A stretch of 32,000 bases of DNA from Crocosphaera subtropica ATCC 51142 (GTDB taxonomy: Bacteria; Cyanobacteriota; Cyanobacteriia; Cyanobacteriales; Microcystaceae), in NCBI RefSeq assembly GCF_000017845.1, contig NC_010546.1, positions 2,400,001-2,432,000 on the forward strand, in the 5' to 3' direction. Both the position numbers and the translations under genes were made by a program. The notes beneath the pieces are model-generated. The model was given only the letters and a program-made list of their open reading frames with translations, ran no database searches and was not told the DNA's origin. Below are positions 3,106 to 24,437 of the stretch, piece after piece (position 1 is the first letter of the stretch; each line of letters begins with the position of its first letter).

Positions 3106-3909
3106 ATGAGTCTTGTGACCAGGAGAATGGAAAACATGAACATTGTGTTGAAAATTGGCGATCAAGCTATCTCATCTGAAGAGCTATATCCCCTACTCGC
3201 TCAGTATCGCTTACTACCACAACTAGCCAAAGAAATCATCATCGATCAAGCGATCGCCGATATCACCTGTACACCAGAAGAAACCAATCTAGCTAAGCAA
3301 CAATTCTATCAAAGACTACAAATCAGCGACGAAACTCAACTGAAAGCTTGGTTAGATGCTCATGGCATGACCCAAGAACAATTAGAAAAATTAAGTGTCA
3401 GGGATTTAAAAATCGAAAAATTTAAACAACTCACTTGGGCAGATAAATTAGATCCCTATTTTGTCAAATGTAAAGGACAATTAGATCGGGTGGTATATTC
3501 TTTAATCCGTACCAAAGATCCAGGGGTTGCCCAAGAACTCTATTTTCGCATTCAAGAAGGAGAAAACACCCTCAGCGAATTAGCTAGACAATATTCCCAG
3601 GGGTCAGAAGCCCAAACCGGGGGACTCCTTGGTCCAGTGGAACTCAACACCCCTCACCCTAAAATTGCACAAATTTTAGCAGCCAGTCGCCCTGGGCAAC
3701 TTTCCCCTCCCACTCAAATCGGAGATTGGTGGATTATTTTGCGGTTGGAGAAGTATATGTCAGCCCAACTAGATGACAAGACAAGACAACGACTCCTTAA
3801 CGAACTCTTTCAAGGTTGGTTATTAACCCAACTTCAACAAAATGTTTCTTTTTCTCCCCCTCAAGTTTCTGCCAAGAAAGAACAGAGTTATACTGGGCAG
3901 TCGAGTTAA
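3106..3909 (+). CDS. parvulin-type peptidyl-prolyl isomerase (SurA/PpiC-like)
   Basis: 267-aa ORF. The C-terminal half (VYSLIRTKDPGVAQELYFRIQEGENTLSELARQYSQGSEAQTGGLLGPV...GDWWIILRLEK) resembles a PpiC rotamase domain. The start is uncertain: ATGs at 3106, 3127 and 3136. AGGAGA at 3121-3126 best fits the 3136 start. Confidence 0.65.
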   Translation: MSLVTRRMENMNIVLKIGDQAISSEELYPLLAQYRLLPQLAKEIIIDQAIADITCTPEETNLAKQQFYQRLQISDETQLKAWLDAHGMTQEQLEKLSVRDLKIEKFKQLTWADKLDPYFVKCKGQLDRVVYSLIRTKDPGVAQELYFRIQEGENTLSELARQYSQGSEAQTGGLLGPVELNTPHPKIAQILAASRPGQLSPPTQIGDWWIILRLEKYMSAQLDDKTRQRLLNELFQGWLLTQLQQNVSFSPPQVSAKKEQSYTGQSS

Positions 3910-4312
3910 ATCTATCTAGTTAAATCAACAGATAAAGCCAATCTCGTTGAAATCGTGGGAAAGATTCATTATAAAAAAGAGGGTCAAACTTGATTCTTTC
4001 CATCGACGGTAGAAAACCTTAGTTAGTCTCCAACACTGATCCAGTTGACAATCCGTCTGCTATTAATAATAATTCTCAATTAAAACCCAGTACACTGATT
4101 ATCTGAATCATGATCAACATTTGCCTGAATTTTATCGATCTAATGAATCAACAGTCCCGAAGGCTGTGGGTCACTCAGAACGGTTTTAGCCAGGGAAGTT
4201 TCTATGAACTTTAGTTAGTCCCTCGACATAGAAATGTTGGAAAAAAGTACAACCCTCCCAGTGCTAGAGACTAGAAGCATCAGTCTAAACCTCTCAAGTT
4301 GATTTCGTCATT

Positions 4313-7306
4313 ATGACTCATACTACCAGCGACATACAAGATTTTCTTCATCACATAGACCCCTTTGACCAACTATCGGAAACCGCCATCGCCACAATCG
4401 CTAATCAGTGTCAAATTTGGCGTTATCGTATGGGTCAAGTGATTTTGATGCGGGGGAAACTCTCCTCCTATGTGACCATCCTCTTAGAAGGACAGGGACG
4501 CTTATTAGGGTACGATCCTCGCACCCAAATGCCCAGCACCCTGCAACGATTACAACCAGGATCGATTGTTGGAGACGTTAACCTTGTACGGGGAGTTCCC
4601 TGTGAAACTGTTATTGCTTCGACAGAAGCCGTGGGATTAGCTCTCAGGGAAGAACACTTCTGGAGCTTATTAGAAGAGTATCCCAGGCTAAAAGAGCAAT
4701 TTCAAGGCCAATGTAGCTTAAGCGAACTTTACGATCTTCTTGGTACTTATTTAGCCCAACAAGCCCAAGGGGACATCAATATCAAAGCTTTAGCAGAGGA
4801 TCTCCTCGAAGATGCTCAAGTTTACTACCTAGAGCCAGGAAAAAATAGTTTACCCCCAGAGCATCAGCAACAACTCTGGTTAGTCAGTGGGGGAGGCACG
4901 CTTGAAAATTTTAAGGTAGGTAATCGTTTAATCTCAGATAATGGCAACCCATCAGTGGTGGTTACAGGCAATCAACCAGTCCGTGTCATCATTTTACCTC
5001 TTCTGGATCTAAGTAACACCCACAACCAAAGCCAGTTGAACTCAGTCCAAGAATCGTCTGCTATTTCTTTAGACAAAGTTGAAGAAGAGATTCCCTATGC
5101 AGATGTGGAAGTGGTGGGAGTTGCTCCTGCCCCAGAACCTTCCAAGAAAGAAAAAAGGCGCAAATCCTATCCGTTTGTCAAAGGAAAAACCCCGTTGGGC
5201 GTGGGTTCAGCCTGTTTTCAAATGCTGAGTCAATATTTTGGGATGCCCTATCGTCGGGATGTCATTCGTCGCATTTTAGCGCAACAATTACAACGAACAG
5301 GAACCCTCTCATTACCCTTATGTGGGGCGATTACCGAATTAATGGGACTCAACGCCCAATTAATTAAAATTCCTGCCTCTTCCTTTACCCAACTAAAAAC
5401 CCCTGCCTTACTTATCTGGCAAGATAGTCTCGCTATCTTATATGACGTGAGTGATAAAGAAGTGGTAGTGGCCGTGCCGGAACTGGGGATTTTACGTCGT
5501 AGTCCCCGTGAGTTTCTAGAAAGGTGGGGAGATACTGGAGAAGTCTTATTATTACAACCCACTAAAGAAACCCCCCAACAACGATTTGGTTTGAGTTGGT
5601 TTATTCCGGCCTTAAGACAATATCGTCGGGTATTAGCAGAAGTTTTTATTGCTTCGTTTTTCGTACAGTTATTCGGCTTAGCGAATCCTTTAATGATTCA
5701 GGTGATCATTGATAAAGTGATTGTGCAGAATAGTGCCGATACCTTACAAGTATTAGGAACATTTTTATTAATTATTGCTATTTTTGAAGCAGTGTTGACA
5801 ACCCTGCGAACCTATTTATTTGTGGACACCACCAACCGCATCGATATGAGTTTGGGGTCAGAAATTATTGATCACCTGTTGCGGTTGCCTCTGCGGTATT
5901 TTGAACGCAGACCAGTGGGGGAAATTTCGACACGGGTGAATGAGTTAGAAAATATCCGTCAGTTTTTAACAGGAACTGCCCTGACAGTAGTGTTAGATGC
6001 GGTGTTTTCTGTCGTTTATATTGCCGTGATGATAGTCTATAGTCCCCTGTTGACCTTGGTAGCCTTGGGTATCGTACCCATTTTTGTGGCCATGACCCTA
6101 GTTTTCTCCCCTACCATTCGCCGTCAACTGAGAACCAAAGCCGAAAGAAACGCCCAAACCCAGTCCTATCTGGTAGAAGTAATGTCAGGGATACAAACCG
6201 TTAAGGCACAAAATATTGAACTGCGATCCCGTTGGCAATGGCAAGAAAAATACGCCCGTTACGTCTCAGCCGGGTTTAATACGGTCATTACTTCTACCTT
6301 GGCTAGTTCTACCAGTGGCTTTCTCAATAAATTATCCGGACTATTAGTATTATGGGTGGGAGCTTATTTAGTATTGCAACAAGAACTCAGTTTAGGACAA
6401 TTAATCGCCTTCCGCATTATTGCCAGTTATGTTACTTCACCCATTTTACGACTGACTCAACTGTGGCAAAACTTCCAAGAAACCGCCCTCTCCTTAGAAC
6501 GGTTAGCGGATATTGTCGATACCCCTCAAGAAGCCGAACGGGATCGCAGTAATATTCCCATGCCAGCTATTCGAGGGGCAGTGAAATACGAAAACGTCTC
6601 CTTCCGCTTCAAACAACACGGTCCTTTGCAACTGAAAAATATCAATATTGACTTCCCGGCTGGTACCTTTATCGCTGTAGTGGGAGGCAGTGGTGCCGGA
6701 AAAAGTACCCTCACGAAACTGATTTCACGATTGTATGAACCCGAAGCTGGGCGTATCTTAATCGATGGTTACGACATTTCCAAAGTGGAACTGTATTCTT
6801 TGCGTCGTCAAGTAGGGGTAGTTCCTCAAGAAACTCTCTTATTCGAGGGATCAGTACAAGATAATATTGCCCTGACTAACCCCGATGCCACCACCGAAGA
6901 GATAATAGAAGCAGCCACCGTGGCCGCAGCCCATGAGTTTATTATGACCCTACCCAATGGGTACAATACCAATGTAGGAGAGAGAGGATCAGCCCTATCA
7001 GGGGGACAACGACAACGGATCGCCATTGCTCGATCAGTGCTGCAAAATCCCCAAATCCTAGTATTAGACGAAGCCACCAGTGCCTTAGACTATGCCACCG
7101 AACAGCAAGTCTGTTTAAACCTATTGAATGCCTTTAGCGATCGCACTGTTTTCTTTATTACCCACCGTTTAGGGACCATCAGAAGTGCAGATGTCATTTT
7201 AATGATGGATTCAGGATCGGTCGTTGAACAAGGAACCCACGACGAACTAATGGCTCTTAAAGGTCGTTATTACTACCTCTACCAACAACAGGAAGGCCAT
7301 CAATAA
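4313..7306 (+). CDS. ABC exporter, HlyB/bacteriocin-exporter type: N-terminal cNMP-binding-like domain, C39-like domain, 6-TM domain and nucleotide-binding domain
   Basis: 997 aa. Residues about 10-125 form a CAP/cNMP-like beta-barrel (GQVILMRG...GSIVGDVNLV...). Residues about 285-415 are C39-like (GVGSACFQMLSQYFGMPY). A type-1 exporter TMD follows. The NBD has Walker A GGSGAGKST, signature LSGGQRQR and Walker B ILVLDEATSALD. Confidence 0.9.
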   Translation: MTHTTSDIQDFLHHIDPFDQLSETAIATIANQCQIWRYRMGQVILMRGKLSSYVTILLEGQGRLLGYDPRTQMPSTLQRLQPGSIVGDVNLVRGVPCETVIASTEAVGLALREEHFWSLLEEYPRLKEQFQGQCSLSELYDLLGTYLAQQAQGDINIKALAEDLLEDAQVYYLEPGKNSLPPEHQQQLWLVSGGGTLENFKVGNRLISDNGNPSVVVTGNQPVRVIILPLLDLSNTHNQSQLNSVQESSAISLDKVEEEIPYADVEVVGVAPAPEPSKKEKRRKSYPFVKGKTPLGVGSACFQMLSQYFGMPYRRDVIRRILAQQLQRTGTLSLPLCGAITELMGLNAQLIKIPASSFTQLKTPALLIWQDSLAILYDVSDKEVVVAVPELGILRRSPREFLERWGDTGEVLLLQPTKETPQQRFGLSWFIPALRQYRRVLAEVFIASFFVQLFGLANPLMIQVIIDKVIVQNSADTLQVLGTFLLIIAIFEAVLTTLRTYLFVDTTNRIDMSLGSEIIDHLLRLPLRYFERRPVGEISTRVNELENIRQFLTGTALTVVLDAVFSVVYIAVMIVYSPLLTLVALGIVPIFVAMTLVFSPTIRRQLRTKAERNAQTQSYLVEVMSGIQTVKAQNIELRSRWQWQEKYARYVSAGFNTVITSTLASSTSGFLNKLSGLLVLWVGAYLVLQQELSLGQLIAFRIIASYVTSPILRLTQLWQNFQETALSLERLADIVDTPQEAERDRSNIPMPAIRGAVKYENVSFRFKQHGPLQLKNINIDFPAGTFIAVVGGSGAGKSTLTKLISRLYEPEAGRILIDGYDISKVELYSLRRQVGVVPQETLLFEGSVQDNIALTNPDATTEEIIEAATVAAAHEFIMTLPNGYNTNVGERGSALSGGQRQRIAIARSVLQNPQILVLDEATSALDYATEQQVCLNLLNAFSDRTVFFITHRLGTIRSADVILMMDSGSVVEQGTHDELMALKGRYYYLYQQQEGHQ

Positions 7307-7392
7307 AGCCAAGTTATAGTTGATCACGGGTCACTGATAACGGTTCACTGACCCATTTAACACCCCTTGAATTCTTTTTATAGGTATGAATT

Positions 7393-9132
7393 ATGATTAA
7401 CACCAATGGTAAACATGAAAGAGACGACGATCTCACGCAAAAAAACTCAGACCAAGGGTCATCGGCCTTAGCTACCACTGATAATGCTAACGATCCCTTA
7501 TCTAGAAACTTATTAGCCCCTATTACCTCCGAACACGCCGTCATCCTCCGTCAATCTCCTAGTTGGTCTAGAGGAGTAGTCTGGACGATTATTGGCGTAA
7601 CCACCGCAAGTATTGTCTGGGCGGCCATTGCCAAAATAGAACAGGTGGTGCCAGCACAAGGACAACTCAAACCCCAAGAAGCGGTTAAGGAAGTCCACGC
7701 CCCCCCCGTCGGTGGTGCAGTCGTAGAAGAAGTATTAGTCAAAGATGGGGAAAAAGTCAAACCAGGAGACATCCTAGTTATCTTAGATTCAGAAGCCAGT
7801 ACCGCAGAGTTAAAGTCTCTAGAAAAAGTCAAAGCTTCCTTAGAACAAGAAAATCGGTTTTATCGAACCTTGATGAATCAATCCCTCGACCCTTCAGACG
7901 TAGAACGAGCCATTATTAAACTCGATTTACCCACCGAAGTTGCAGCCCTTGCTCGCAACCGTGCGGCCTTAATGGCAGAAAACCAACTTTATCAAGTTGA
8001 ACTGGGTAATCAAGCCTCAGGAACCAGTTTAACCCCAGAACAACTAGCTAGACTCCAAGCTTCTCAAGCTGAATCTTCCTCTAGAGCATTATCAGCCCAA
8101 CTCGAAATGGATCAGCTAGAAAAACAACTCAGGCAAACTCAAGTGGAATTAGCGGATGCTAAAAAACAATTGCTCGATGATCGCAAAGTGTTAAACGAGA
8201 TTCAACAAAGAAACGAACAAGCCATTAAAGAAGCCAACAAAGCCCTCGAAATTGAAGAAGCCATACTACAAGATATTGGACCGTTGGCCGAAGAAGGGGG
8301 CGTGGCTCGCTTACAAGTAGAACGACAGCGACAAACCATCGCTGAACGACGACAACAACTGACAGAACAAAGAGCCAATGGCACCATTGAATACGATCGC
8401 CAAAAACAACAAGTTCAAGATCGTCTCAAAGAAATTGAACGATTTACAGAAGAAGAAAAACGCTTAAAAATTGCCATTAATCAGGCACAAGCTCGATTAG
8501 TCAATACCGTTAAACTAACAGAAAAGGACTTGAGGGACAAAATTGCTGATAATAAAGAAAGAATTGCTGATATTGACAGTCAATTGAATAAAACGATTAT
8601 CGAAAACGATAAAAGAATTGCTGAATTAGGGAGTCAAATCAGTCGCACAAACGTGACCCTTAAATATCAAGAAATTAAAGCCCCTGTAGGGGGGACAGTG
8701 TTTGATCTCAACGCTGGCCCCGGTTATGTTCCTCCCCCAAACCAAACCGAACCCCTCCTGAGAATTGTGCCTGATGATAATTTAATTGCTGAAGTGAATA
8801 TTACTAACCAAGATATCGGTTTTGTACGAGTCGGTCAGCAAGTTGATGTGCGAATTGATTCTTTTCCCTTTAGTGAATTTGGGGATATCAAAGGAGAAGT
8901 CATCTCCATTGGTTCTGATGCCCTAGAACCAGACGAAATTCATCAATATTATCGATTTCCTGCCAAAGTAGAACTGGATCAGCAATACTTAACCACTGCT
9001 GACCGAGAAATTCCTTTACAATCAGGAATGTCTGTGACTGCTAATATTAAAGTCAGGGAAAATCGTACAGTGCTAAGTTTAATTACAGAATTGTTTAATA
9101 AGAAAGTGGAAAGTCTCAAACAAGTGCGTTAA
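7393..9132 (+). CDS. HlyD-family periplasmic adaptor (membrane fusion protein) of a type I secretion-like system
   Basis: 579 aa. It has an N-terminal TM segment (VVWTIIGVTTASIVWAAIA) and a lipoyl-like motif (VKDGEKVKPGDILVILD). A very long Q/E/L-rich coiled coil follows, then a C-terminal beta-barrel (IKAPVGGTVFDL...VGQQVDVRIDSFP). It lies directly downstream of the ABC exporter. Confidence 0.85.
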   Translation: MINTNGKHERDDDLTQKNSDQGSSALATTDNANDPLSRNLLAPITSEHAVILRQSPSWSRGVVWTIIGVTTASIVWAAIAKIEQVVPAQGQLKPQEAVKEVHAPPVGGAVVEEVLVKDGEKVKPGDILVILDSEASTAELKSLEKVKASLEQENRFYRTLMNQSLDPSDVERAIIKLDLPTEVAALARNRAALMAENQLYQVELGNQASGTSLTPEQLARLQASQAESSSRALSAQLEMDQLEKQLRQTQVELADAKKQLLDDRKVLNEIQQRNEQAIKEANKALEIEEAILQDIGPLAEEGGVARLQVERQRQTIAERRQQLTEQRANGTIEYDRQKQQVQDRLKEIERFTEEEKRLKIAINQAQARLVNTVKLTEKDLRDKIADNKERIADIDSQLNKTIIENDKRIAELGSQISRTNVTLKYQEIKAPVGGTVFDLNAGPGYVPPPNQTEPLLRIVPDDNLIAEVNITNQDIGFVRVGQQVDVRIDSFPFSEFGDIKGEVISIGSDALEPDEIHQYYRFPAKVELDQQYLTTADREIPLQSGMSVTANIKVRENRTVLSLITELFNKKVESLKQVR

Positions 9133-10385
9133 TGGGACAAACAAAAACAATGGATTTATTGGAATATCAGGCTAAAGAACTTTTTCATCAGGTAGGCATT
9201 CCCGTTTTACCCTCCCAACCCATTGCTCAACTTAGTGAACTTAAACACCTCCATATTCGTTATCCAGTGGTCTTAAAATCCCAAGTCCATTCTGGGGGTC
9301 GTGGCAGGGCCGGAGGCATTCGTTTTGTGCAGAATACCATCGATGCAGTGGCTGCAGCCCAAGCTATTTTTAGCTTACCCATTTTAGGAGAATATCCCGA
9401 AGTGATTCTGGCTGAAGCTCGTTATGATACCCAGGACGAATTTTTTCTCTCCATTCTCCTCGATTATCAATTACAACGGCCGGTGTTAATGGGTTCAGCT
9501 AAAGGGGGAATTGATGTAGAAACCCTATTGAAACATATGCACAAAGTTATCCTCGATCAAGGGTTTTCTCCTTTTTATGCCCGCCGTTTGGCTACCAAAA
9601 TGGGTCTTCGGGGTCCCCTGATTCATGGGGTGAGTACCATTCTTGAAAAAATGTATCAATTATTTATCGAAAAAGACCTCGATTTGATTGAAATTAACCC
9701 CTTAGCTGTGAGTGCCTCTGGAGAAGTTATGGCTTTAGATGGGAAAATAACCGTCAACGATATGGCCTTATCCCGTCATCTAGACTTGTTGAGCTTTCTT
9801 TCTCCGAAAGCTGATCAGACCTCTAGCGTCTCCCCCAATCAAAACATTGTCACCACACCTCCTCAAAAACCCCGTTGGCTTGGAAGTAAGGAAAAAGGGG
9901 GTAATGTGGGTATCATTGCCAATGGGTTGGGACTCACCTTAAGTACCTGGGATCTGATGGTTAACCAGAAAGGACAACCCTTAGGAGCTTTTATTATTGA
10001 AGAAAAAAGTAGCAGTAAATCGTTAATTAAACAGTTAGGAATTGCTGTAGAAAAAATGCTCACTCTTCCTGAGATTCAAATCATTTTAATCAATATTGTC
10101 AGTAGTGAACCAACATCGGCCTTAGTTGCTCAGGGGATGCTGGATTATTGTCAACCGACTATGGTGACACCGGATAGCGAAGAACGATTATCCCGACCAA
10201 CAGGGGCAAATTCTACCCGCCAAAGACAGATAAACTCCTCTCCTAATTCTAACCCTATCCAATGGGTTCTGAGACTGGCTACAGGGGATATCAAGTCCAT
10301 CGAAACATCCCTTTCTGATTTACCCATTTATTGTTTTGAGGATCTTAGCGAGGCGGTTAAAAAAACCGTTGCGTTAACTCAGTAG
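9132..10385 (+). CDS. SucC-like ATP-grasp protein (succinate--CoA ligase beta-subunit homolog, divergent C-terminal domain)
   Basis: 417 aa. The N-terminus MDLLEYQAKELFHQVGIPV...VVLKSQVHSGGRGRAGGIRFV matches the SucC ATP-grasp start (MNLHEYQAK...VKCQVHAGGRGKAGGV). The ATG at 9132 overlaps the HlyD stop (TAATG). An alternative start is M7 at 9150. The C-terminal half keeps GNVGIIANGLGLTLSTWDL but lacks the glycine motifs. Confidence 0.75.
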   Translation: MGQTKTMDLLEYQAKELFHQVGIPVLPSQPIAQLSELKHLHIRYPVVLKSQVHSGGRGRAGGIRFVQNTIDAVAAAQAIFSLPILGEYPEVILAEARYDTQDEFFLSILLDYQLQRPVLMGSAKGGIDVETLLKHMHKVILDQGFSPFYARRLATKMGLRGPLIHGVSTILEKMYQLFIEKDLDLIEINPLAVSASGEVMALDGKITVNDMALSRHLDLLSFLSPKADQTSSVSPNQNIVTTPPQKPRWLGSKEKGGNVGIIANGLGLTLSTWDLMVNQKGQPLGAFIIEEKSSSKSLIKQLGIAVEKMLTLPEIQIILINIVSSEPTSALVAQGMLDYCQPTMVTPDSEERLSRPTGANSTRQRQINSSPNSNPIQWVLRLATGDIKSIETSLSDLPIYCFEDLSEAVKKTVALTQ

Positions 10386-10390
10386 TTAAC

Positions 10391-10583
10391 CTGAGTTCGG
10401 GTTTCGGAGTTAGAGCATTATTGCGGAGGCGACTCAACCGTCGTCACACGGCGGTTAGAAAACACACCAAGCAGAGGAGACAATAGGTGTTTCAGACAAC
10501 GATAGAATTGACCAAGGAAGTGCGCCGAGGTGTCCTCGGCAAGCACAAGTCTTGGTTAGTCTTTCAGCTTATCCCGAACTCAC
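10391..10583 (-). mobile_element. MITE-like or PATE-like non-autonomous element carrying the 41-nt terminal module of the IS200/IS605 tnpB 3' end
   Basis: Positions 10391-10431 are 39/41 identical to 22597-22637. There are perfect 10-bp inverted termini: TGAGTTCGGG at 10392-10401 and CCCGAACTCA at 10573-10582. TAGTTAA direct repeats flank it at 10383-10389 and 10586-10592. Internal hairpins lie at about 10436-10456 (8-bp stem) and 10524-10540 (GCCGAGG-TGT-CCTCGGC). No ORF is present. Strand is given by analogy with tnpB orientation. Confidence 0.55.
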
Positions 10584-10619
10584 CTTAGTTAAATAAATTT
10601 AGTCAAACATACAAAAATC

Positions 10620-11540
10620 ATGAAATGGGAAGCCGATAGTAAAGTTTTAATTCAAGGAATCACCAATCCGTTAGGAATTAGTTATGCTGCACGGATGAAA
10701 GCCAAGGGAACCAATATTGTTGCAGGCATTACCCTAGAAGAACAAACGGCCGAAATGGATGATATTCCCATCTTTACTTTGGTAGAAGAAGCCGTGAAGC
10801 AGATAGGGGAAATAGAGATTAGTCTAATTTTGACCCCTCCTTACGAAGTCTTAGACGCTGGATTAGAAGCCATGGCCGCTGGCATCAAACAATTAGTGAT
10901 TGTCACTTCTAGAGTTCCTCCCCTCGATTTGATCGCACTCCTAGAACAAGCTCAAGTGACTAATACTTTTGTCTTGGGATCAGGAAGTGAAGGGTTACTG
11001 GTTCCCGATCAGTTTTGGTTAGGGATTATGGAACCCGACTTCTATACAGCCGGTCAAGTGGGGATTATTAGTCGTTGCGATCGCTTAATGGATGAGGTCG
11101 CCCTCAATCTAACTCAAGCAGGGTTAGGGCAGTCTTTAGCCATTAGTTTAGGATCTGATGCCGTCATGGGATCGAATTTTGAGCAATGGTTACAAATCAT
11201 GGAAGAAGACGAAACCACCGAGGCGATTATTTTATTAGGGCAACCTTATAGTAGTCCAGAATTATTAGCTGCAGAATATATCGATTCAGCCATAGAAAAA
11301 CCCGTTATTGCTTATCTTCCAGGGATTCTAGCCCCCATGAACCGCAGTTTCGGCGATGCAACTAGCATTATTGCCAGTCAATTATCTTATCAAAGGGGAG
11401 ACAAAACCAGGGAAAATCCAACCATTACAGCCCTCAAAAAAGCTGGTGTTAAAATTGCCAATAGTGTTGAGGAAATTCCCAAATTAACCAAGCGGATTTT
11501 TTCCAATCAACGTCGTAGGTCAAGAACCGTCAATAAGTAA
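10620..11540 (+). CDS. SucD-like CoA-binding protein (succinate--CoA ligase alpha-subunit homolog lacking the catalytic histidine)
   Basis: 306 aa, colinear with SucD: KVLIQGITNPLG.., VGIISRCDRL.., GSNFEQWLQIMEEDETTEAIILLG.., KPVIAYLPGILAP. The phosphohistidine loop reads RSFGDATSII instead of RMGHAGAII. Confidence 0.75.
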   Translation: MKWEADSKVLIQGITNPLGISYAARMKAKGTNIVAGITLEEQTAEMDDIPIFTLVEEAVKQIGEIEISLILTPPYEVLDAGLEAMAAGIKQLVIVTSRVPPLDLIALLEQAQVTNTFVLGSGSEGLLVPDQFWLGIMEPDFYTAGQVGIISRCDRLMDEVALNLTQAGLGQSLAISLGSDAVMGSNFEQWLQIMEEDETTEAIILLGQPYSSPELLAAEYIDSAIEKPVIAYLPGILAPMNRSFGDATSIIASQLSYQRGDKTRENPTITALKKAGVKIANSVEEIPKLTKRIFSNQRRRSRTVNK

Positions 11541-11541
11541 C

Positions 11542-11555
11542 CAGTGACCAGTTAA
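11542..11555 (+). repeat. STRR-like heptamer tandem (CAGTGAC CAGTTAA) just after the SucD-like stop codon
   Basis: Read directly from the sequence. It belongs to the same heptamer family as 12982-13002 and, in reverse complement, 7330-7350. Confidence 0.4.
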
Positions 11556-11680
11556 CATTACATTGGTCTAGTCTCCTTGGTAAAATAGTCAAGGCATTGA
11601 CCATTAGAAGAAAAACCCCCGAACACAGTAAGGTATTGTTTGTGGGTACGGCATTCAGAGGAACATAGGAGTAACATTCA

Positions 11681-12979
11681 GTGACCGTAAAAATTGGTTT
11701 ACTCGGTTTGGGAACAGTGGGAACAGGAACCGCACAAATTTTACTAGACCCCACGGGACGCAATCCTTTATTACAAGACATTAATATCAGTAAGGTGGGG
11801 GTGCGATCGCTTGATAAACCCCGTCAAGTCCAACTCGCTCCAGGGGTGATCACCACCGACTTAGAGACAGTGGTTAATGATCCCGAAATTGCGATCGTTG
11901 TCGAATTATTAGGGGGGATCGAACCAGCACGATCGCTCATTTTACAAGCCATTGCCCAAAAAAAGCACGTGGTCACCGCTAATAAGGCAGTGATTGCTCG
12001 TCATGGTGATGAAATCTACTCAGCAGCCAACGAGGCAGGGGTCTACGTCCTCTTAGAAGCAGCCGTCGGCGGTGGTATCCCTATCATTAAACCCCTGAAA
12101 CAATCGTTAGGGGCAAATCGCATCAGTAGCATTATTGGCATTGTTAATGGCACCACCAACTATATTTTGACCAAAATGACCAGTGCCGGAGCGGACTTTG
12201 CCGAAGTTTTAACCGAAGCACAACAATTAGGCTATGCTGAAGCCGATCCCACTGCTGACGTAGACGGGTTAGATGCAGCAGATAAAATCGCCATTTTAGC
12301 CTCTTTAGGGTTTGGCGGACGGGTTAAACGAGAAGATGTTTATTGCGAGGGTATTCGTCAAGTCAGTGCGGCCGACATTACTTATGCCGATCAATTAGGG
12401 TTTGTGATTAAATTATTAGCCATTGCCAAAGGAGCAGAGGGAGAAATCTCCGAACAATTACAATTAAGGGTTCATCCTACCCTGGTTCCGAAGGATCATC
12501 CCCTGGCCAATATTAATGGGGTATCTAATGCGGTTTTGGTTGAAGGTAGCCCCCTGGGCCAAGTGATGTTTTTTGGACCGGGGGCTGGAGCCGGACCAAC
12601 GGCCAGTGCAGTGGTTTCCGATATTATGAACATTGTGGCTATCCTCAAAAGTAGCGGACTAACAACGACCCTTGATCCCTTATTAAGCTGTGTTCATCAA
12701 CATTTTTGTCAAATTACCCCCATTGAAGCGATTAATACTCGTTTTTATGCCCGTTTCCTGACAAAAGATTTACCGGGGGTCATTGGTCATTTAGGGACAA
12801 CCTTTGGCAACCATCAAGTTAGTCTCGAATCAGTGGTACAAATCGGCTTTCAAGGGGAACTTGCTGAGATTGTTGTCGTCACTCACTATGTTTGTGAAGG
12901 TAACTTTCGCACTGCCCTAGACGAAATTCGTACCCTAGAGGCGATTGATAGTATTCCCAGTATTTTAAGGGTTTTATAG
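11681..12979 (+). CDS. hom: homoserine dehydrogenase
   Basis: 432 aa with a GTG start. N-terminal Rossmann motif IGLLGLGTVGTG, catalytic-domain motifs GIVNGTTNYILT and AEADPTADVDGLDAADKIAILA, and a C-terminal ACT-like regulatory domain. Confidence 0.9.
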   Translation: MTVKIGLLGLGTVGTGTAQILLDPTGRNPLLQDINISKVGVRSLDKPRQVQLAPGVITTDLETVVNDPEIAIVVELLGGIEPARSLILQAIAQKKHVVTANKAVIARHGDEIYSAANEAGVYVLLEAAVGGGIPIIKPLKQSLGANRISSIIGIVNGTTNYILTKMTSAGADFAEVLTEAQQLGYAEADPTADVDGLDAADKIAILASLGFGGRVKREDVYCEGIRQVSAADITYADQLGFVIKLLAIAKGAEGEISEQLQLRVHPTLVPKDHPLANINGVSNAVLVEGSPLGQVMFFGPGAGAGPTASAVVSDIMNIVAILKSSGLTTTLDPLLSCVHQHFCQITPIEAINTRFYARFLTKDLPGVIGHLGTTFGNHQVSLESVVQIGFQGELAEIVVVTHYVCEGNFRTALDEIRTLEAIDSIPSILRVL

Positions 12980-14998: not shown

Positions 14999-16234
14999 TT
15001 AGGGTTTAGATTTGACAAGACTACGAAGTTTATAGCGTATCCGTTTCACCAGGGGAGGACGACGTTTATCTTCTACAGCTAAAGCCGGATGAACGGGCGG
15101 TAAGGAGAACAATAAAGGACGCTGGATGGATTGTTTTCGACCAGCAGTTTGATGTAATTCTCTAATAAAATCTGCCCATTGATCGGCTGCAACGGTATCA
15201 GAATAGTCCGCTTCAATTTTTGCCCGTGCGCCTTGGGATAGTTTTTCCCAAAGTCCCGTTTCTTCCTGTAAGCGTCGAATGGCGGCAACAAAACTATCTC
15301 CACGATCATCGACTAATAAACCGGTTACACTATCTTCAACCAGTTCTGGGATACCGCTACGAATCCGTAGACACACAGGAACAACCCCACAGGCCATGGC
15401 TTCCATTAAGGCAATGGGTAAGCCTTCGTAGTCTGATAATAAAACAATGACATGACTTCCTAAGAGGTGTTTCTGTACTTGATCACTGTTCAGTCTACCC
15501 CCTAATTTAACGGGAATGTCTTGAGCGTGTTGAGCAAGGATTTTCTCAACAGCACCCTGCTTTGATCCACTTCCATAAATGATGGCTTCTGTATTGGGGA
15601 CTTCTTTAACCGCACGACAAAAAGCTTTAGTTAATAATGAAATTTGTTTTTGTTCTTCGACTAAACGACCGACATAAAGGATTTTTAGTTTCTCTGAGGG
15701 TTTTTTGGTAAGCGTTCTGGGAATCGGCACTCCGCAGGGAATACATCTAATCTGAGTTGAGGTAATTTTATTTAAAAAGGTTTGCTCAATAAAACGAGAA
15801 ACACAAACTAGACCAGAAAGTTGATAATCTGGTTGACCAAAGACAAATTCATCGACAAGGCCATGATAAAAAGGATCATCAGAGTGCATCACCCCAATAG
15901 TGGGAATACCAGCTTTTTTGACCCAGCGACTCGCATAAAAAGCGGGAACAACAAGATGAGGAACAAAAATATCAGGCGGATCTTTTTTTAATTGTTGTAA
16001 TATCCAATTAATGTGTTGATCGGTGTGATAGGGAATTTGATAAACGGAATGGTTAAATCCCTCTTGTTTGACCCTTTGAACGCCTTGACATTCCTCTTCA
16101 TTGCCTCGAATGGAAAATAAGACCCTTGATTCGATGCCACGCTCTCTCAAAGAAGGAAGAAGACGAGGTAACCAAGCATAAGGTCCGCCAACAAAGTTGG
16201 GATAATCGTGAGCGCAAAAGGTGACTTTTATCAC
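14999..16234 (-). CDS. GT4-family (GT-B fold) glycosyltransferase
   Basis: 411 aa with a GTG start. C-terminal motif SDYEGLPIALMEAMACGVVPV...PELVEDSVTGLLV (E-x7-E type) is typical of the glycosyl transferase group 1 family. Confidence 0.8.
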   Translation of the reverse strand: MIKVTFCAHDYPNFVGGPYAWLPRLLPSLRERGIESRVLFSIRGNEEECQGVQRVKQEGFNHSVYQIPYHTDQHINWILQQLKKDPPDIFVPHLVVPAFYASRWVKKAGIPTIGVMHSDDPFYHGLVDEFVFGQPDYQLSGLVCVSRFIEQTFLNKITSTQIRCIPCGVPIPRTLTKKPSEKLKILYVGRLVEEQKQISLLTKAFCRAVKEVPNTEAIIYGSGSKQGAVEKILAQHAQDIPVKLGGRLNSDQVQKHLLGSHVIVLLSDYEGLPIALMEAMACGVVPVCLRIRSGIPELVEDSVTGLLVDDRGDSFVAAIRRLQEETGLWEKLSQGARAKIEADYSDTVAADQWADFIRELHQTAGRKQSIQRPLLFSLPPVHPALAVEDKRRPPLVKRIRYKLRSLVKSKP

Positions 16235-16302
16235 GTTAATAACCTAAGTTTTGCTATGAATTTTTAGCTTTTTCTAGAAACAGTATGACCTTATTAAAAA
16301 AA

Positions 16303-17328
16303 TTAGAATTGATTAACTTTTTGCTGAGTAGATTTAATATTTTTTTTGTCTATTTTAAACATTACTTTCAAATCAAGTTGAGTATTTTTTATTAAGTTTC
16401 TCAACACTAGCTTTCCATACTTTAATTGAGATGGTTCATCTCTTAAATAGTAGTACATCAATTTCCAAAAATTCCAGTTCAGACAATCCAATAAGGATAC
16501 TATGCTGCTCCAGTTTCTAATTAAATTCAAATAAACAGATGCTTGTTTCTCAGGAAGAACCTTAAAGTTAGTTGATACAAAATTTAAAATTATATAGTTT
16601 TCTATGTACTGTATCAAACGTTTACGTTTGTCCTTTTCACTATAGGCTCGACTCATTTGAGAATGATATCTATAATAGTTAAGGGATTGATGACAAAAAG
16701 CAATATCATAATTTTTGAGAATTTTTAGATAACAATACCAATCTCCTGATAATCTCATATTCTCAGGAGCCATTCCTGCTTCTATATAGGCTTTTTTTCT
16801 CATGAGTACAGCACTAGCATTGGGTATGGTATTTTGAATAATTAAATAGTTGGCAACTTCATTGATTCCACTATTGGTAAAATCATTATTCCATCTATTG
16901 TTAGCTATTTTCTGAGTATAATCAGAGTAATTTGCTGTTATTTTACCCTCTTCATTAATCTGTAATGATTGACAATAAGCAATACCTATTTTTGGAGCAT
17001 CTTCTAACAACGGAACTAATGTTTCTAAAAACTTTTCATCTGCACAATCGTCAGATTCAGCGATCCAAATATATTCTCCTTTAGCTTCTTTGACTCCCCT
17101 ATTCCATTGCTTAAAAGGACTCCCACTATTTTGAGAATTAAAAATTGCTTTTTTAATTTTAGGATGATTAGCATATTTAGAAAAAACTTCTTTTGTATTA
17201 TCGGAAGAAGCATCATCTAAAAAAATGATTTCAAAATCTTGATAGGTTTGATTTAAAATACTATCTAGACGTTGTTCTAGAAATTTGGCATGATTGTAAC
17301 TTGGAATAATAATAGTTACTTTTGGCAT
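16303..17328 (-). CDS. GT2-family glycosyltransferase
   Basis: 341 aa. N-terminus KVTIIIPSYNHAKFLEQRLDSILNQTYQDFEIIFLDDASSDNT plus a later ESDD motif (D-x-D type) fits a GT-A fold. The gene is very AT-rich. Confidence 0.85.
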   Translation of the reverse strand: MPKVTIIIPSYNHAKFLEQRLDSILNQTYQDFEIIFLDDASSDNTKEVFSKYANHPKIKKAIFNSQNSGSPFKQWNRGVKEAKGEYIWIAESDDCADEKFLETLVPLLEDAPKIGIAYCQSLQINEEGKITANYSDYTQKIANNRWNNDFTNSGINEVANYLIIQNTIPNASAVLMRKKAYIEAGMAPENMRLSGDWYCYLKILKNYDIAFCHQSLNYYRYHSQMSRAYSEKDKRKRLIQYIENYIILNFVSTNFKVLPEKQASVYLNLIRNWSSIVSLLDCLNWNFWKLMYYYLRDEPSQLKYGKLVLRNLIKNTQLDLKVMFKIDKKNIKSTQQKVNQF

Positions 17329-17390
17329 AGTTTTTAAGAAAGTTACTTAGTTACTAAATATGTTTTGAGTAAATCAGGATAAACTATTTT

Positions 17391-18467
17391 TCAGACTTTA
17401 CTGATATTTCCTGTAGATGTATCTACATATTCAAGAGTTTCAAGAAATACTTGAGGTTGCTTTTTGAGATACCTATCTATTTTAGCATTTTTAGGTATTA
17501 GATTAGCAAATGAATAAGCTTGACTTCCTAAATACCAGGCATAATAAAGTAGTGAGCTAACGATTGAATAGAAACTAGCTTTTTTCTGACAAGCAATCTC
17601 TTCTAAAACAACATTTTTTTCAAGCTCTTTAAACTTCATGTTTTCGTAAATTTCAAAAGATTGAAATAGTTCAATAATTGCATTAATAGATTTATTATCT
17701 TGTTGGTCAGGATGGAATTTATAATATAAGTTATTAATATGTTGATGCTTCAAGAGCATTAATACACGTCCTAATCCTATTAAATAATCTTCTATGTTAA
17801 TAACTTTAGCCTCTACCAAAGGTTCTAAAACTAAAATATGTGTGTTTAAAATATCGGTTTCAGTCGCAATTTTATTATTATTGTTTTTTAAGTTAATAGG
17901 AATTTTTATTACTTTTTCTAAATCTGGAAATGCAGCATCTGAAAACTTATATGCCGTTAAATAACTATCAGGAAAAAAGCTTTTAATATGTTTTTGTTTT
18001 AGACGATTTCCATAATTTAGTTTAAGGTAAATGTCATTTTTTAAATAATTTATATACCTTGACTTTTTTTTAAATAGGCTATTAGCTTGTTCACGATATG
18101 AAAAGGAAGTTTTACCTTCTTCTAGTAAACATAATCCTTCACAAAGATGATGAGAACCCATCAAATTTATCATATTGTAAAATATGTGAGGAATATAAAG
18201 TATAAAAGAACAATTATCGGAGATATTTATTATATATTGGTCAAGTTCTTTCAATTTTTCTCGTCCTTCCCAAAATTTTGAACTAATAGGAAAACTCTCT
18301 TTTGGGTTATGACAAAAAGGAAAATCAAAGAATGTATATCCTTCATAGAAGTCAATTCCTCTATAAGCCAAAATCACAACTTCTTCATTGGGTATCTTTA
18401 GATATTCAATAACCCCCAAAGCAATTAGCTTGGTAATTTGACTTTGAATAAAAAAAATATGCTTCAT
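17391..18467 (-). CDS. hypothetical protein, possible sialyltransferase-like (GT52/GT38/GT80-type motif pair) glycosyltransferase
   Basis: 358-aa ORF with a Rossmann-like N-terminus MKHIFFIQSQITKLIALGVI. An E-E-G motif lies at aa 116-118 (nt 18114-18122) and an H-P motif at aa 252-253 (nt 17709-17714). It lies in a glycosyltransferase block and is very AT-rich. Confidence 0.5.
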   Translation of the reverse strand: MKHIFFIQSQITKLIALGVIEYLKIPNEEVVILAYRGIDFYEGYTFFDFPFCHNPKESFPISSKFWEGREKLKELDQYIINISDNCSFILYIPHIFYNMINLMGSHHLCEGLCLLEEGKTSFSYREQANSLFKKKSRYINYLKNDIYLKLNYGNRLKQKHIKSFFPDSYLTAYKFSDAAFPDLEKVIKIPINLKNNNNKIATETDILNTHILVLEPLVEAKVINIEDYLIGLGRVLMLLKHQHINNLYYKFHPDQQDNKSINAIIELFQSFEIYENMKFKELEKNVVLEEIACQKKASFYSIVSSLLYYAWYLGSQAYSFANLIPKNAKIDRYLKKQPQVFLETLEYVDTSTGNISKV

Positions 18468-18514
18468 GCCTATATAATATCAAGATAATCTGTGTTGATG
18501 GTAAGTTCAGTATA

Positions 18515-22550: not shown

Positions 22551-22596
22551 ACTTTGGCTTTCCTATAGCAACCTTAATGCGGAGTGCTATATAAAG

Positions 22597-22770
22597 CTGA
22601 GTTCGGGGTTTGGAGTTAGAGCATTATTGCGGAGGCGGTTGAAAAGCGTACCTCTCCCTGATCCTCTGTTCGCATGACGTACTCCAGGCGTTCGTTGCTT
22701 AGGCAACAGAACGCTGGCTTCTCCTCTTCTGAGCGCGAAGATTTGCGTTTTATAGTGAGGCGAACGCCCA
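22597..22770 (-). ncRNA. predicted TnpB omega RNA (right-end RNA) scaffold
   Basis: By position: it overlaps the last ~50 codons of tnpB and runs to the element's right end, where omega RNAs are encoded. It is densely structured. GGCGTTCG at 22687-22694 pairs with CGAACGCC at 22761-22768, and a GTTGC-TTAG-GCAAC hairpin lies at 22694-22707. The terminal 41 nt are conserved in the second element. Extent is not experimentally defined. Confidence 0.45.
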
Positions 22771-24031
22771 ACCCCACTTTTTTAATCAATATCCCACTGT
22801 TAATATCTCTTGCCATTGATGCACCACAATCACAAGAATGCCAACGATCTGATAGTTCTTTGGGAACATAATTAAGACAAATTGCACAATATCGACTTGT
22901 ACCTTTTGGATTAACTTTAACAACTTTCTTACCAGCTTTTGCAGCTTTGTAAGGAAGAATCTCGTTAAGAAATCCAGAGATACCAGCATCAGCAAAACTT
23001 TTATTTAATCCAGATTTAGCCGATTGACCATTAGGTAGAAAAGTCCCATCTTCTCCCTGTTTAGGCTTGTTTCGTCTAGACATATTTGATATCTTTAAGT
23101 TTTCGACAAATAAAACATCAGCTTTATCTAATAGTTGATTAGCTAATTCATAATGCCATTGTTGACGTTGCCTCGCTATTTTCTGATGAAGTTTGGCTAC
23201 TTTTTGGTTAAGTTTTCTTCTTGCTTTAGATCCTAATTTTCTACTATCTCTTTTTGATTGAAGTTTAGTTAATTTATCTTCAGATTGACGGTAGAATTTA
23301 GGTGGCTTAACAGTAGTTGAGTCACTGCAAGCAACGAAAAACTCCAAGCCACTATCTATCCCTAAACTGTTTTCTTCTGTTGGTTGAATATCTACAGTTA
23401 AGCTAGGAACTGATTTATCTTCAAGTGTTAACGTTACATACCATCCATCAGCCTTTTTGGTAATTAAAGCACGTTTTACTGTAAATCCATCAGGCAAAGG
23501 GCGATGTTGAATAAACTTAATTTCACCTAATTTGGGGAAAGTAATGCGATTATTATTAACACAGTCAGCCTTGATAGATGGAAACCCAATTGTACGATAC
23601 CTATTCTTTCCTTTAAATCGAGGTTTACCACTACGTTTTCCATTTTTGTCCCCCTTGATATAACGGCTAAAAGCAAGATCAACTCTTTTTACCATATCTT
23701 GTAAAACATGGGCATGGATGTCTTTATACCAAGGACGTTCTTGTTTTAATTGAACTAATGACCTTTTTTGTCTGTAATATTCTGGTTGTTCTCTAGGTTC
23801 AGCAATACTACAAATTAAAGGACAAGAATCAATATAAGTTCGGTTATTTTCCCACCAATCAAATCTATCAGCCAATAAATAATTATACTGACATCTTAGT
23901 TTTTCTAACCAACTATTTAGACGACAGCGTTGTTCGTAGTTAGGTTTTAAACGGTATTGATAGGAAACTATTATGGGTTTACCTCGACCTGCTATAATGA
24001 CTGTAACACAAAATAGCAACGGTGACAACAT
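22616..24031 (-). CDS. tnpB: TnpB, RNA-guided endonuclease (IS200/IS605 accessory protein, OrfB)
   Basis: N-terminal YQYRLKPNYEQRCRLNSWLEKLRCQYNYLLADRF is typical of TnpB. RuvC-I is LGIDSG (D248 in track numbering), RuvC-II is LFVENL (E332) and RuvC-III is ARDINSG (D431). The zinc-finger cysteines are CAIC...CDCG. The start is uncertain: ATG at 24031 (M23 of the track ORF) is chosen, and the homologous region begins about 20 aa later with no canonical start codon there. Confidence 0.85.
   Translation of the reverse strand: MLSPLLFCVTVIIAGRGKPIIVSYQYRLKPNYEQRCRLNSWLEKLRCQYNYLLADRFDWWENNRTYIDSCPLICSIAEPREQPEYYRQKRSLVQLKQERPWYKDIHAHVLQDMVKRVDLAFSRYIKGDKNGKRSGKPRFKGKNRYRTIGFPSIKADCVNNNRITFPKLGEIKFIQHRPLPDGFTVKRALITKKADGWYVTLTLEDKSVPSLTVDIQPTEENSLGIDSGLEFFVACSDSTTVKPPKFYRQSEDKLTKLQSKRDSRKLGSKARRKLNQKVAKLHQKIARQRQQWHYELANQLLDKADVLFVENLKISNMSRRNKPKQGEDGTFLPNGQSAKSGLNKSFADAGISGFLNEILPYKAAKAGKKVVKVNPKGTSRYCAICLNYVPKELSDRWHSCDCGASMARDINSGILIKKVGLGVRLTIKRKSSRSEEEKPAFCCLSNERLEYVMRTEDQGEVRFSTASAIML
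23993..23998 (+). promoter_or_regulatory. candidate -10 box (TATAAT) for tnpA
   Basis: A perfect TATAAT lies 32-37 nt upstream of the tnpA ATG at 24030. There is no convincing -35. Confidence 0.3.
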
Positions 24032-24437
24032 GAAAGATGATTTTGTTTCTAGTGGTAGAGCAATATCAGACTTAAAAGCACACTTAGTTTTGACCACTAA
24101 GTATCGCCGTAAAGTATTTACGGGGTCAATGATAGAACGACTTCAAACTATAATATGGGAACTCTGTTGTAAGTGGGATTGTAAGATGATTGAGGTCAAT
24201 GGCGAGGCAGACCACATTCATTTACTTTTTCAATATTATCCACAACTAGAATTGCCTAAATTTGTAGGTAATTTAAAATCTATAACAAGTCGCCGTTTAA
24301 GAAATGAATTCCCAGAGTTAGCTAATGTTTATAAAAAGTCAGTTTTGTGGAATGAATCTTATTTTATTGCTAGTTGTGGAGGCGTAACAGTATCCCAATT
24401 GAAAGAATATGTTGAGAATCAAAAAACTCCTAATTGA
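24030..24437 (+). CDS. tnpA: IS200/IS605-family Y1 (HUH) transposase TnpA
   Basis: 135 aa from ATG 24030. Motifs: KAHLVLTTKYRRKVF, the HUH motif in ADHIHLLF, and C-terminal SYFIASCGGVT with the catalytic Tyr region. The size is typical of IS200 TnpA. The track ORF from 23973 adds 19 aa without homology. Confidence 0.85.
   Translation: MKDDFVSSGRAISDLKAHLVLTTKYRRKVFTGSMIERLQTIIWELCCKWDCKMIEVNGEADHIHLLFQYYPQLELPKFVGNLKSITSRRLRNEFPELANVYKKSVLWNESYFIASCGGVTVSQLKEYVENQKTPN

Follow-up and report, generated by a model that had tools for sequence, protein, structure and literature searches.

The 32,000-nucleotide stretch of the Crocosphaera subtropica ATCC 51142 genome analyzed here (contig NC_010546.1, positions 2,400,001 to 2,432,000; the window) encodes homologs of the two succinyl-CoA synthetase (SCS; CoA, coenzyme A) subunits, a SucC-like (β) protein followed by a SucD-like (α) protein, in which many of the catalytic signatures of that enzyme are replaced. 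The genes, their motifs, and the neighboring features are listed in Table 1. The longest open reading frame (ORF) of the SucC-like protein, 9132-10385, would encode 417 residues from an ATG at 9132 that overlaps the TAA stop codon of the upstream HlyD gene (TAATG), leaving the start ambiguous within 9130-9152; the ATG at 9150 is more likely, because translation from it agrees with P0153 in the database and yields the canonical MxLxEYQAK N terminus (here MDLLEYQAK). A Pfam scan identified ATP-grasp_2 (1.7e-39) in the SucC-like protein, with no match to Ligase_CoA (PF00549) at E<=0.01; the SucD-like protein matched CoA_binding (2.5e-16), Succ_CoA_lig, and, at a borderline level, Ligase_CoA. The NCBIfam SCS models covered both proteins end to end, yet the scores fell ~130-175 bits under the curated cut-offs, with 200.8 bits against 375.55 (sucCoAbeta) and 192.4 against 370 for the β models (TIGR01016 / NF001913) and 208.2 bits against 336 and 202.8 against 353.2 for the α models (NF004230 / TIGR01019). 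The nearest relatives of the SucD-like protein are all from Crocosphaera, and many of its orthologs are named only "CoA-binding protein" by NCBI. It has the architecture of SucD, a CoA_binding Rossmann domain and a CoA-ligase/flavodoxin-like domain in colinear order. Its AlphaFold2 model showed a mean predicted local distance difference test (pLDDT) score of 88.9, with low confidence only at residues 241-262 (the former phosphohistidine loop), and Foldseek comparison of the model with bacterial and archaeal SCS α chains gave template-modeling scores, normalized to the target, of 0.88-0.92.

Table 1. Genes, domains, motifs, and neighboring elements in the window (positions are those of the window).
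Feature	Position	Strand	Basis
SucC-like (SCS β-subunit homolog), 411 amino acids	9150-10385	+	ORF list, Pfam, NCBIfam, PDB phmmer
ATP-grasp (nucleotide-binding, "site II") domain, residues 1-215	9150-9794	+	invariant motifs, entropy, dN/dS
S/T/P/Q-rich inter-domain linker SPKADQTSSVSPNQNIVTTPPQKP (SPKADQ...PQKP, residues 218-241 of the 411-residue form)	9801-9872	+	E. coli alignment
Degenerate C-terminal (CoA-ligase-type) domain	9900-10385	+	alignment, dN/dS
FIIEEKSSS replacing FLDVGGGAT	9990-10016	+	phmmer alignment to FLD(V/I)GGGA
INIVSSEP replacing VNIFGGIV	10089-10112	+	phmmer alignment to (I/V)NIFGGI
Lineage-variable insertion RPTGANSTRQRQINSSPNSNP (RPTGAN...SNP, residues 349-369)	10194-10256	+	alignment with E. 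coli and cyanobacterial homologs
Intergenic insert between the SucC-like and SucD-like genes, 234 nt, outside both proteins	10386-10619	.	inverted repeat, IS605 similarity
SucD-like (SCS α-subunit homolog), 306 amino acids	10620-11540	+	Pfam, NCBIfam, PDB phmmer, AlphaFold2, Foldseek
QGITNPLG replacing the CoA-binding Rossmann motif QGFTGSQG	10653-10676	+	aligned to QGITGREG of PDB chain
GSGSEG replacing GPNCPG (Asn122, Cys123, Pro124 of α)	10977-10994	+	G122 and S123 in 75/75 clade members
SRCDRL replacing SRSGTL (N terminus of the α "power helix" cradling the phosphoryl group)	11070-11087	+	alignment
SLGSD replacing GIGGD	11145-11159	+	alignment
LGQPYS replacing IGEIGG; Glu208-α (site I partner of the active-site His) to Gln	11235-11252	+	alignment
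Asp246, codon GAT, at the phosphorylated His246-α position	11355-11357	+	nrsfGDAtsii aligned to gkrmGHAgaii
Type I secretion ABC exporter: N-terminal cNMP-binding, C39-like, and ABC domains	4313-7306	+	above HlyB NCBIfam cut-off
HlyD, upstream of the SucC-like gene	7393-9132	+	Pfam/NCBIfam
IS605 OrfB/TnpB (Cas12f-like) transposase gene	22616-24097	-	HTH_OrfB_IS605, OrfB_IS605, Cas12f1-like TNB domain

The register of both proteins was established with HMMER (phmmer) against the PDB chains 3ufx, 1oi7, and 2yv2 for α and 3ufx_B, 1cqi_B, and 1jkj_B for β (E 1e-37 to 3e-47; best values, 3.3e-47 for the SucD-like protein and 1.3e-42, to 3ufx_B, for the SucC-like protein), and conservation was counted in ~75 nonredundant histidine-less relatives, with 118 His-retaining sequences as the comparison set. 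A first-pass annotation of this DNA had described the SucD-like protein as colinear with SucD, with an Asp at the phosphohistidine position. The colinearity was borne out by the full-length PDB alignments (E 3e-47), and the manual register of Asp246 was upheld by profile and pairwise hidden Markov model alignments to crystallized SCS chains. The motif changes that it had listed (GITNPLG, SRCDRL, and SLGSD) all reappeared in the phmmer comparisons with the PDB chains. Asp occupies position 246 in 70/75 members of the histidine-less clade. At the N terminus of the power helix, Gly154 is replaced by Asp (D in 70/75) and Thr155 by Arg (R in 45/75), and position 208 is Gln in 56/75, compared with Glu in 111/118 of the His-retaining clade. 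The CoA-contact residues (GxTGxxG, Lys42, Glu97, and Cys123-Pro124) are likewise replaced, the corresponding segments reading GITNPLG, TLEEQT, VTSRVP, and GSGSEG. The SucD-like protein therefore has neither a phosphorylatable His in a GHAGA loop, nor Glu208-α, nor the SRSGT start of the power helix. Because Asp246, Asp154, Gly122, and Ser123 are near-invariant in the clade, the pocket appears to have been rebuilt and not eroded.

The two halves of the SucC-like protein differ sharply in conservation. All of the nucleotide and Mg ligands are present in the N-terminal ATP-grasp_2 domain, including K43 (E. coli K46), the GGRG loop (GGRGK), E89, E97, E181-x-N183 (E. coli E197/N199), and D197 (E. 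coli D213); in E. coli numbering, Lys46, the GGRG loop, Glu99, Glu107, Glu197-x-Asn199, and Asp213 are invariant (73-118 homologs). The mean column entropy was 0.75 bits for residues 1-215 versus 1.9 bits for the C-terminal domain, and the ratio of nonsynonymous to synonymous substitution rates (dN/dS) was 0.02-0.05 for the ATP-grasp half versus 0.16-0.28 for residues 216-411. In the C-terminal half, the (V/I)GGGA and FGGI glycine motifs expected of a Ligase_CoA domain are missing. The first-pass annotation had anticipated both the intact N terminus and the motif replacements (FIIEEKSSS and INIVSSEP), and the Pfam and phmmer results agree with it. It had also reported two S/T/P/Q-rich insertions; the second, RPTGANSTRQRQINSSPNSNP, is a true insertion, predicted to be disordered (pLDDT < 50 over residues 338-366; column entropy, 2.6 bits), but the first, SPKADQTSSVSPNQNIVTTPPQKP, aligns with the E. 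coli linker and is the normal inter-domain linker, ~10 residues longer (column entropy, 2.9 bits; pLDDT < 50 over residues 219-238). The α and β proteins degenerate together, in that the β partners of His-retaining α proteins still match Ligase_CoA and retain part of the glycine motif.

Site I of SCS is the pocket for CoA, succinate, and the phosphohistidine, formed by α and the β C-terminal domain. It lies ~35 Å from site II, and the two are linked only by the phosphohistidine loop, which ferries the phosphoryl group on one His. The pair in the window has lost the His together with Glu208, the two phosphate cradles, the succinate motif, and the contacts to CoA, and the textbook reaction is therefore not credible. 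The earlier suggestion that no canonical SCS mechanism can operate without a phosphohistidine is thus supported by alignments showing the loss of every site I signature, and we consider it highly likely that the pair is not a canonical SCS. The annotated "TCA-cycle enzyme" (TCA, tricarboxylic acid) of this genome and its Synechocystis sp. PCC 6803 ortholog would very probably be incapable of that reaction.

Comparison with known systems places the pair more precisely. It shares with canonical SucCD (E. coli 1SCU/2SCU/1JKJ; Thermus 3UFX/1OI7) the two-gene β-then-α order, full-length colinearity at 30-34% identity, the folds, and a fully conserved ATP-grasp nucleotide site; it differs in having Asp for the phosphohistidine, Gln for Glu208-α, and charged SxSGT and GGG cradles, and in lacking FGGI, Cys123-Pro124, the CoA-binding glycine motif, Lys42, and Glu97. 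A His246-α to Asp mutant of E. coli SCS (Majumdar, Guest, and Bridger, 1991) reportedly assembled and lacked SCS activity. That substitution is identical, but it was a single laboratory change in an otherwise intact active site, whereas the Asp in the window is natural, conserved, and accompanied by ~10 coordinated site I changes. Distant matches in sequence and fold were found to 6hxq (1.5e-19) and ACLY (1e-6 to 1e-12), which have the same domain set; the characterized members of this group all use a swinging-loop phosphohistidine, whereas the window pair has none, and no citrate- or acetate-specific features were seen in the pair when compared with these relatives.

The replacement of His by Asp, first noticed in this one genome, proved to be the state of a whole cyanobacterial clade. 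Among the 120 best matches to the SucD-like protein, the His column contained D in 105, H in 9, N in 5, T in 1, and G in 1. The histidine-less clade includes members from Crocosphaera, Aphanothece, Rippkaea, Gloeothece, Snowella, Xenococcaceae, Microcystaceae, and the non-photosynthetic diatom endosymbionts, as well as Spirulina subsalsa, with Glu at the His position, and Synechocystis sp. PCC 6803, the Sll1557 protein of which reads RHFGDSLTIV, SHCDRLT, and LGQPNS. The finding is a variant of a known enzyme family that spans a major cyanobacterial clade, including a model organism. The histidine-less pair is kept in the ~2.5-3.1 Mb genomes of Rhopalodia/Epithemia endosymbionts (P0048, P0059, P0062, P0178, P0179, P0181, P0190, and P0191). 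Because these endosymbionts are non-photosynthetic, the role of the pair probably does not depend on photosynthesis.

With a His-containing relative as the query, the search recovered a large, tightly conserved clade (Leptolyngbyaceae, Oculatella, Trichocoleus, Chroococcidiopsis, Crinalium, Leptothermofonsia, and others) with GHAGAII in 118/118 sequences and with SRSGTLT, GIGGD, and GEIGG also kept. In a neighbor-joining tree this clade, with short branches, was sister to the non-His clade, with long branches. Intermediates are present, as in Cyanosarcina (P0131), which keeps the His but has E208Q; His changed to Asp a second, independent time in the tree, in the Microcoleus FACHB-831 group; and the most divergent, long-branched members have N, E, Q, K, A, or P at the His position. 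From His-retaining forms, by way of the intermediates, to completely remodeled ones, these cyanobacterial proteins make up a natural series in which to study how a two-site enzyme becomes a pseudoenzyme. The His-retaining cyanobacterial SucCD (e.g. P0119, P0443, and L021/L022) are the closest relatives of the window pair, with ~46-50% identity in α and near-identical ATP-grasp motifs in β. They differ from it in keeping GHAGAII, SRSGTLT, GIGGD, GEIGG, ITEGxP, and GPN(S/C)PG and in a β protein that matches Ligase_CoA. They have in common with it a QGIxEPLG-type motif, in which the second Gly of the Rossmann motif is lost, Tyr for His142-α, and the loss of FGGI from β. The His-retaining α proteins (P0426-P0543), often named only "CoA-binding protein" by NCBI, carry QGIxEPLG where GxTGxxG is canonical, with Lys42 replaced by His or Tyr and His142-α by Tyr, and the β proteins (L021:313-1482 and L022:6545-7744) have, besides the FGGI loss, an insertion after VGG. 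Since even the His clade is without GxTGxxG, His142-α, and FGGI, cyanobacterial SucCD are atypical as a whole, and the His-retaining forms may also have a substrate specificity that differs from that of textbook SCS.

Decay of the genes into functionless relics would account for the long branches relative to the His-retaining clade and for the variable, disordered linker and insertion, but this explanation is refuted by the selection analysis and is exceedingly improbable. Against 13 Crocosphaera orthologs, the dN/dS values were 0.06-0.16 for both genes (~0.1 overall, beside the far lower values of the ATP-grasp half), close to that of the neighboring HlyD gene; dS was near saturation, and the true constraint is therefore at least as strong as these ratios show. 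Uninterrupted ORFs of the pair are kept across families at 50-85% identity, and the pair has also been retained in the reduced genomes of the diatom endosymbionts. The Synechocystis orthologs were detected and are co-regulated in proteomes (PMC9175036), and they cycle diurnally (PMC4959675). Like pseudoenzymes generally, the pair combines lost catalytic residues with a kept fold, purifying selection, and one retained ligand-binding module, and orthologs are detected as protein in Synechocystis; the pair is presumably inactive. The first-pass alternatives, "pseudoenzyme or repurposed ATP-grasp system," are both in keeping with the purifying selection, the conserved replacements, and the intact, highly constrained ATP-grasp half.

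Between these two, we lean toward a conserved, SCS-derived pseudoenzyme in which site I would be remodeled and locked, the ATP-grasp module would bind nucleotide, and the protein would act by binding and not by ligation. The SCS fold is kept, as most likely is the pairing of α and β. Site I has been rebuilt by the changes of His to Asp and Glu208 to Gln, by the loss of the succinate-side FGGI motif and the CoA contacts, and by charged residues at the N termini of both phosphate-cradling helices (G154D/T155R in α and GGG to EEK in β). Site II is preserved in full and under stronger constraint than any other part of the pair; binding of Mg-ATP or Mg-ADP is therefore still expected there. Asp246, Arg155, and the new charged residues may fill the former phosphohistidine pocket and lock it as a permanent phospho-mimic, and the protein may serve as a sensor, regulator, or partner protein, by means of its surfaces and its nucleotide-binding module, rather than as a metabolic ligase. 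The ancestral cyanobacterial SCS probably had such a non-catalytic role already, which would have been kept once succinyl-CoA formation became dispensable. We infer the loss of SCS activity, the retained ATP binding, the locked loop, and the non-catalytic role from the sequence comparisons described above.

In a repurposed ATP-grasp enzyme, the γ-phosphate would instead be passed to a carboxylate, which could be that of Asp246 in the swinging loop or that of some new acid, a small molecule or a peptide, and site I would have been rebuilt for the new acceptor. Conversion of a carboxylate and ATP to an acyl-phosphate is the standard chemistry of ATP-grasp enzymes, and the proposal matches it; the extreme constraint on the ATP-grasp half, with its catalytic ligands all invariant, and the conserved, non-random substitutions in site I also speak for it. 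The fixation of Asp at the His position at least twice independently is weak evidence, because His (CAY) to Asp (GAY) requires only one base change. The N, E, Q, K, A, and P residues of distant clade members speak against a nucleophile being strictly needed there, Asp, being shorter than His, would have to face Glu197-β at site II, and neither a candidate acceptor site nor conserved neighbor genes were found in the compared loci. On this evidence we regard a repurposed enzyme, although it is the strongest competitor of the pseudoenzyme reading, as doubtful. The more specific proposal that Asp246 itself is the new phosphate acceptor, forming an aspartyl-phosphate in an ATP-driven acyl-phosphate switch or in a ligase for a new nucleophile at site I, is unlikely. 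If true, it would add a new catalytic mode to the NDP-forming acyl-CoA synthetase superfamily, and in Synechocystis and many other cyanobacteria a "TCA-cycle" gene pair would gain a new function.

The demand for succinyl-CoA also bears on the pseudoenzyme interpretation. In cyanobacteria, heme comes from the C5 route and lysine from the DapL route. In the published model of Cyanothece 51142, succinyl-CoA occurs by name in just two places, the SCS reaction itself and a biomass "soluble pool" term. Both homoserine O-acetyltransferase (HSAT) and an O-acetylhomoserine sulfhydrylase (AHSERL2) are in the iCyt773 reaction lists; methionine is therefore made via O-acetylhomoserine. We count the apparent dispensability of succinyl-CoA formation as support for a pseudoenzyme.

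Several points weigh on the other side. The whole case for the pair is built from sequence; it is not obvious why the ATP-grasp half would be so tightly conserved if the loop were locked; and the AlphaFold model has low confidence exactly at loop 241-262, which holds the Asp246 of the proposed Asp246-Arg155 contact. No conserved gene neighborhood pointing to a partner or pathway emerged from the Crocosphaera, Synechocystis, Rippkaea, and Gloeothece loci compared. In addition, deletion of sucCD in Synechococcus 7002 lowered succinate and malate and blocked growth under strong CO2 sparging (PMC5160925), and in Anabaena 7120 it suppressed the effect of a succinyl-CoA-producing module (PMC12508105). 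These phenotypes fit a working SCS, although the strains concerned may carry the His form.

The same deletions, with their altered succinate-linked phenotypes in two other cyanobacteria, are among the reasons for asking whether the pair might have remained a synthetase for succinyl-CoA (or another acyl-CoA) by way of a non-canonical mechanism. Cyanobacterial SucCD are taken to be a functioning SCS in reviews and experimental papers. Reviews, engineering studies, and genome-scale models credit these genes with the SCS reaction, the model iSyn731 through sll1023 and sll1557 and iCyt773 (Cyanothece 51142) through a single gene pair, cce_2357 and cce_2358. In a published BLAST table, sll1557 and sll1023 are the sole members of the superfamily in Synechocystis, and therefore no canonical back-up pair is present there. 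Along with the single assignment in iCyt773, this argues indirectly against a second, canonical sucCD pair in the genome analyzed here. A surviving synthetase would nevertheless have to connect sites that communicate solely through the phosphohistidine loop, after the His, Glu208, both helix termini, the FGGI motif, and most CoA contacts were replaced together, and we find it quite improbable.

The completeness and wiring of the cyanobacterial TCA cycle have been debated for decades. If the pair forms no phosphoenzyme, the SCS reaction would have to be removed from the models of Crocosphaera, Synechocystis 6803, and their relatives, the sucCD mutant phenotypes would need another explanation, and a conserved, expressed pair with a predicted live ATP-binding module would lack any known function. 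The claim is cheap to test at the bench, given a standard SCS assay and the genetic tractability of Synechocystis. A full-text literature search of incomplete coverage returned no paper noting the missing histidine or describing a pseudo-SCS, and prior notice is possible; to our knowledge, no pseudo-SCS has been described.

The genes upstream of the pair suggest one further role, that of an accessory to the adjacent type I secretion genes (ABC exporter and HlyD) that might, for example, modify or energize an exported peptide. The gap of 0-17 nt between the HlyD and SucC-like genes makes co-transcription likely, and the ABC-HlyD-SucC-SucD order is kept in most Crocosphaera loci. The linkage is, however, limited to this genus, being absent in the Crocosphaera locus L006 and in Snowella, Gloeothece, Rippkaea, and Synechocystis; sucC does not adjoin sucD in Synechocystis and Rippkaea, where the two genes are unlinked; and in C. 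watsonii WH 8501 (L013) the ABC and HlyD genes are fragmented and the SucC/D-like genes intact. Because the HlyD arrangement is confined to Crocosphaera and is not universal even there, we draw no connection between the pair and secretion, a role that is largely refuted and highly improbable. Gene neighborhood was rejected as a clue to function, since the ABC-HlyD linkage is found only in Crocosphaera and the neighbors in Synechocystis, Rippkaea, and Gloeothece are unrelated. The catalytic Cys of the C39 domain of the ABC exporter seemed by eye to be missing, which would make the domain HlyB-type C39-like.

In two distant genomes, those of Synechocystis (L018:1382-3836) and Gloeothece PCC 7424 (L020:12641-16888), but not in the window, genes for NAD salvage and synthesis are located 4-8 kb away from the SucD-like gene; they encode NadE and an NrtR-like NUDIX protein, joined in Gloeothece by NAPRTase and NadD. 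This linkage was also set aside as a clue to function and treated as a coincidence; it may reflect residual synteny or chance.

The spacer that separates the SucC-like and SucD-like genes resembles a miniature mobile element: its terminal inverted repeat is imperfect and 15 nt long (10387-10401 / 10573-10587), and a 44-nt stretch of it is 93% identical to 22594-22637, at the 3' end of the IS605 OrfB/TnpB gene. The other Crocosphaera loci lack this insert; their sucC-sucD spacer is ~23-40 nt in most cases, with ~134 nt in L010 and ~470 nt in L012. An Rfam scan of the window, aimed mainly at the 234-nt spacer, gave no match, and promoter and terminator counts in a scan of 3900-11800 were near the shuffle expectation. 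Elsewhere in the window, the GC content drops to 0.27-0.32 at 16000-18500 and 29000-31000, versus ~0.43 in the remainder. Within the first of these stretches lie glycosyltransferase genes and an ORF (17391-18467, minus strand) that has no Pfam match, and the stretch may be a horizontally acquired surface-polysaccharide island.

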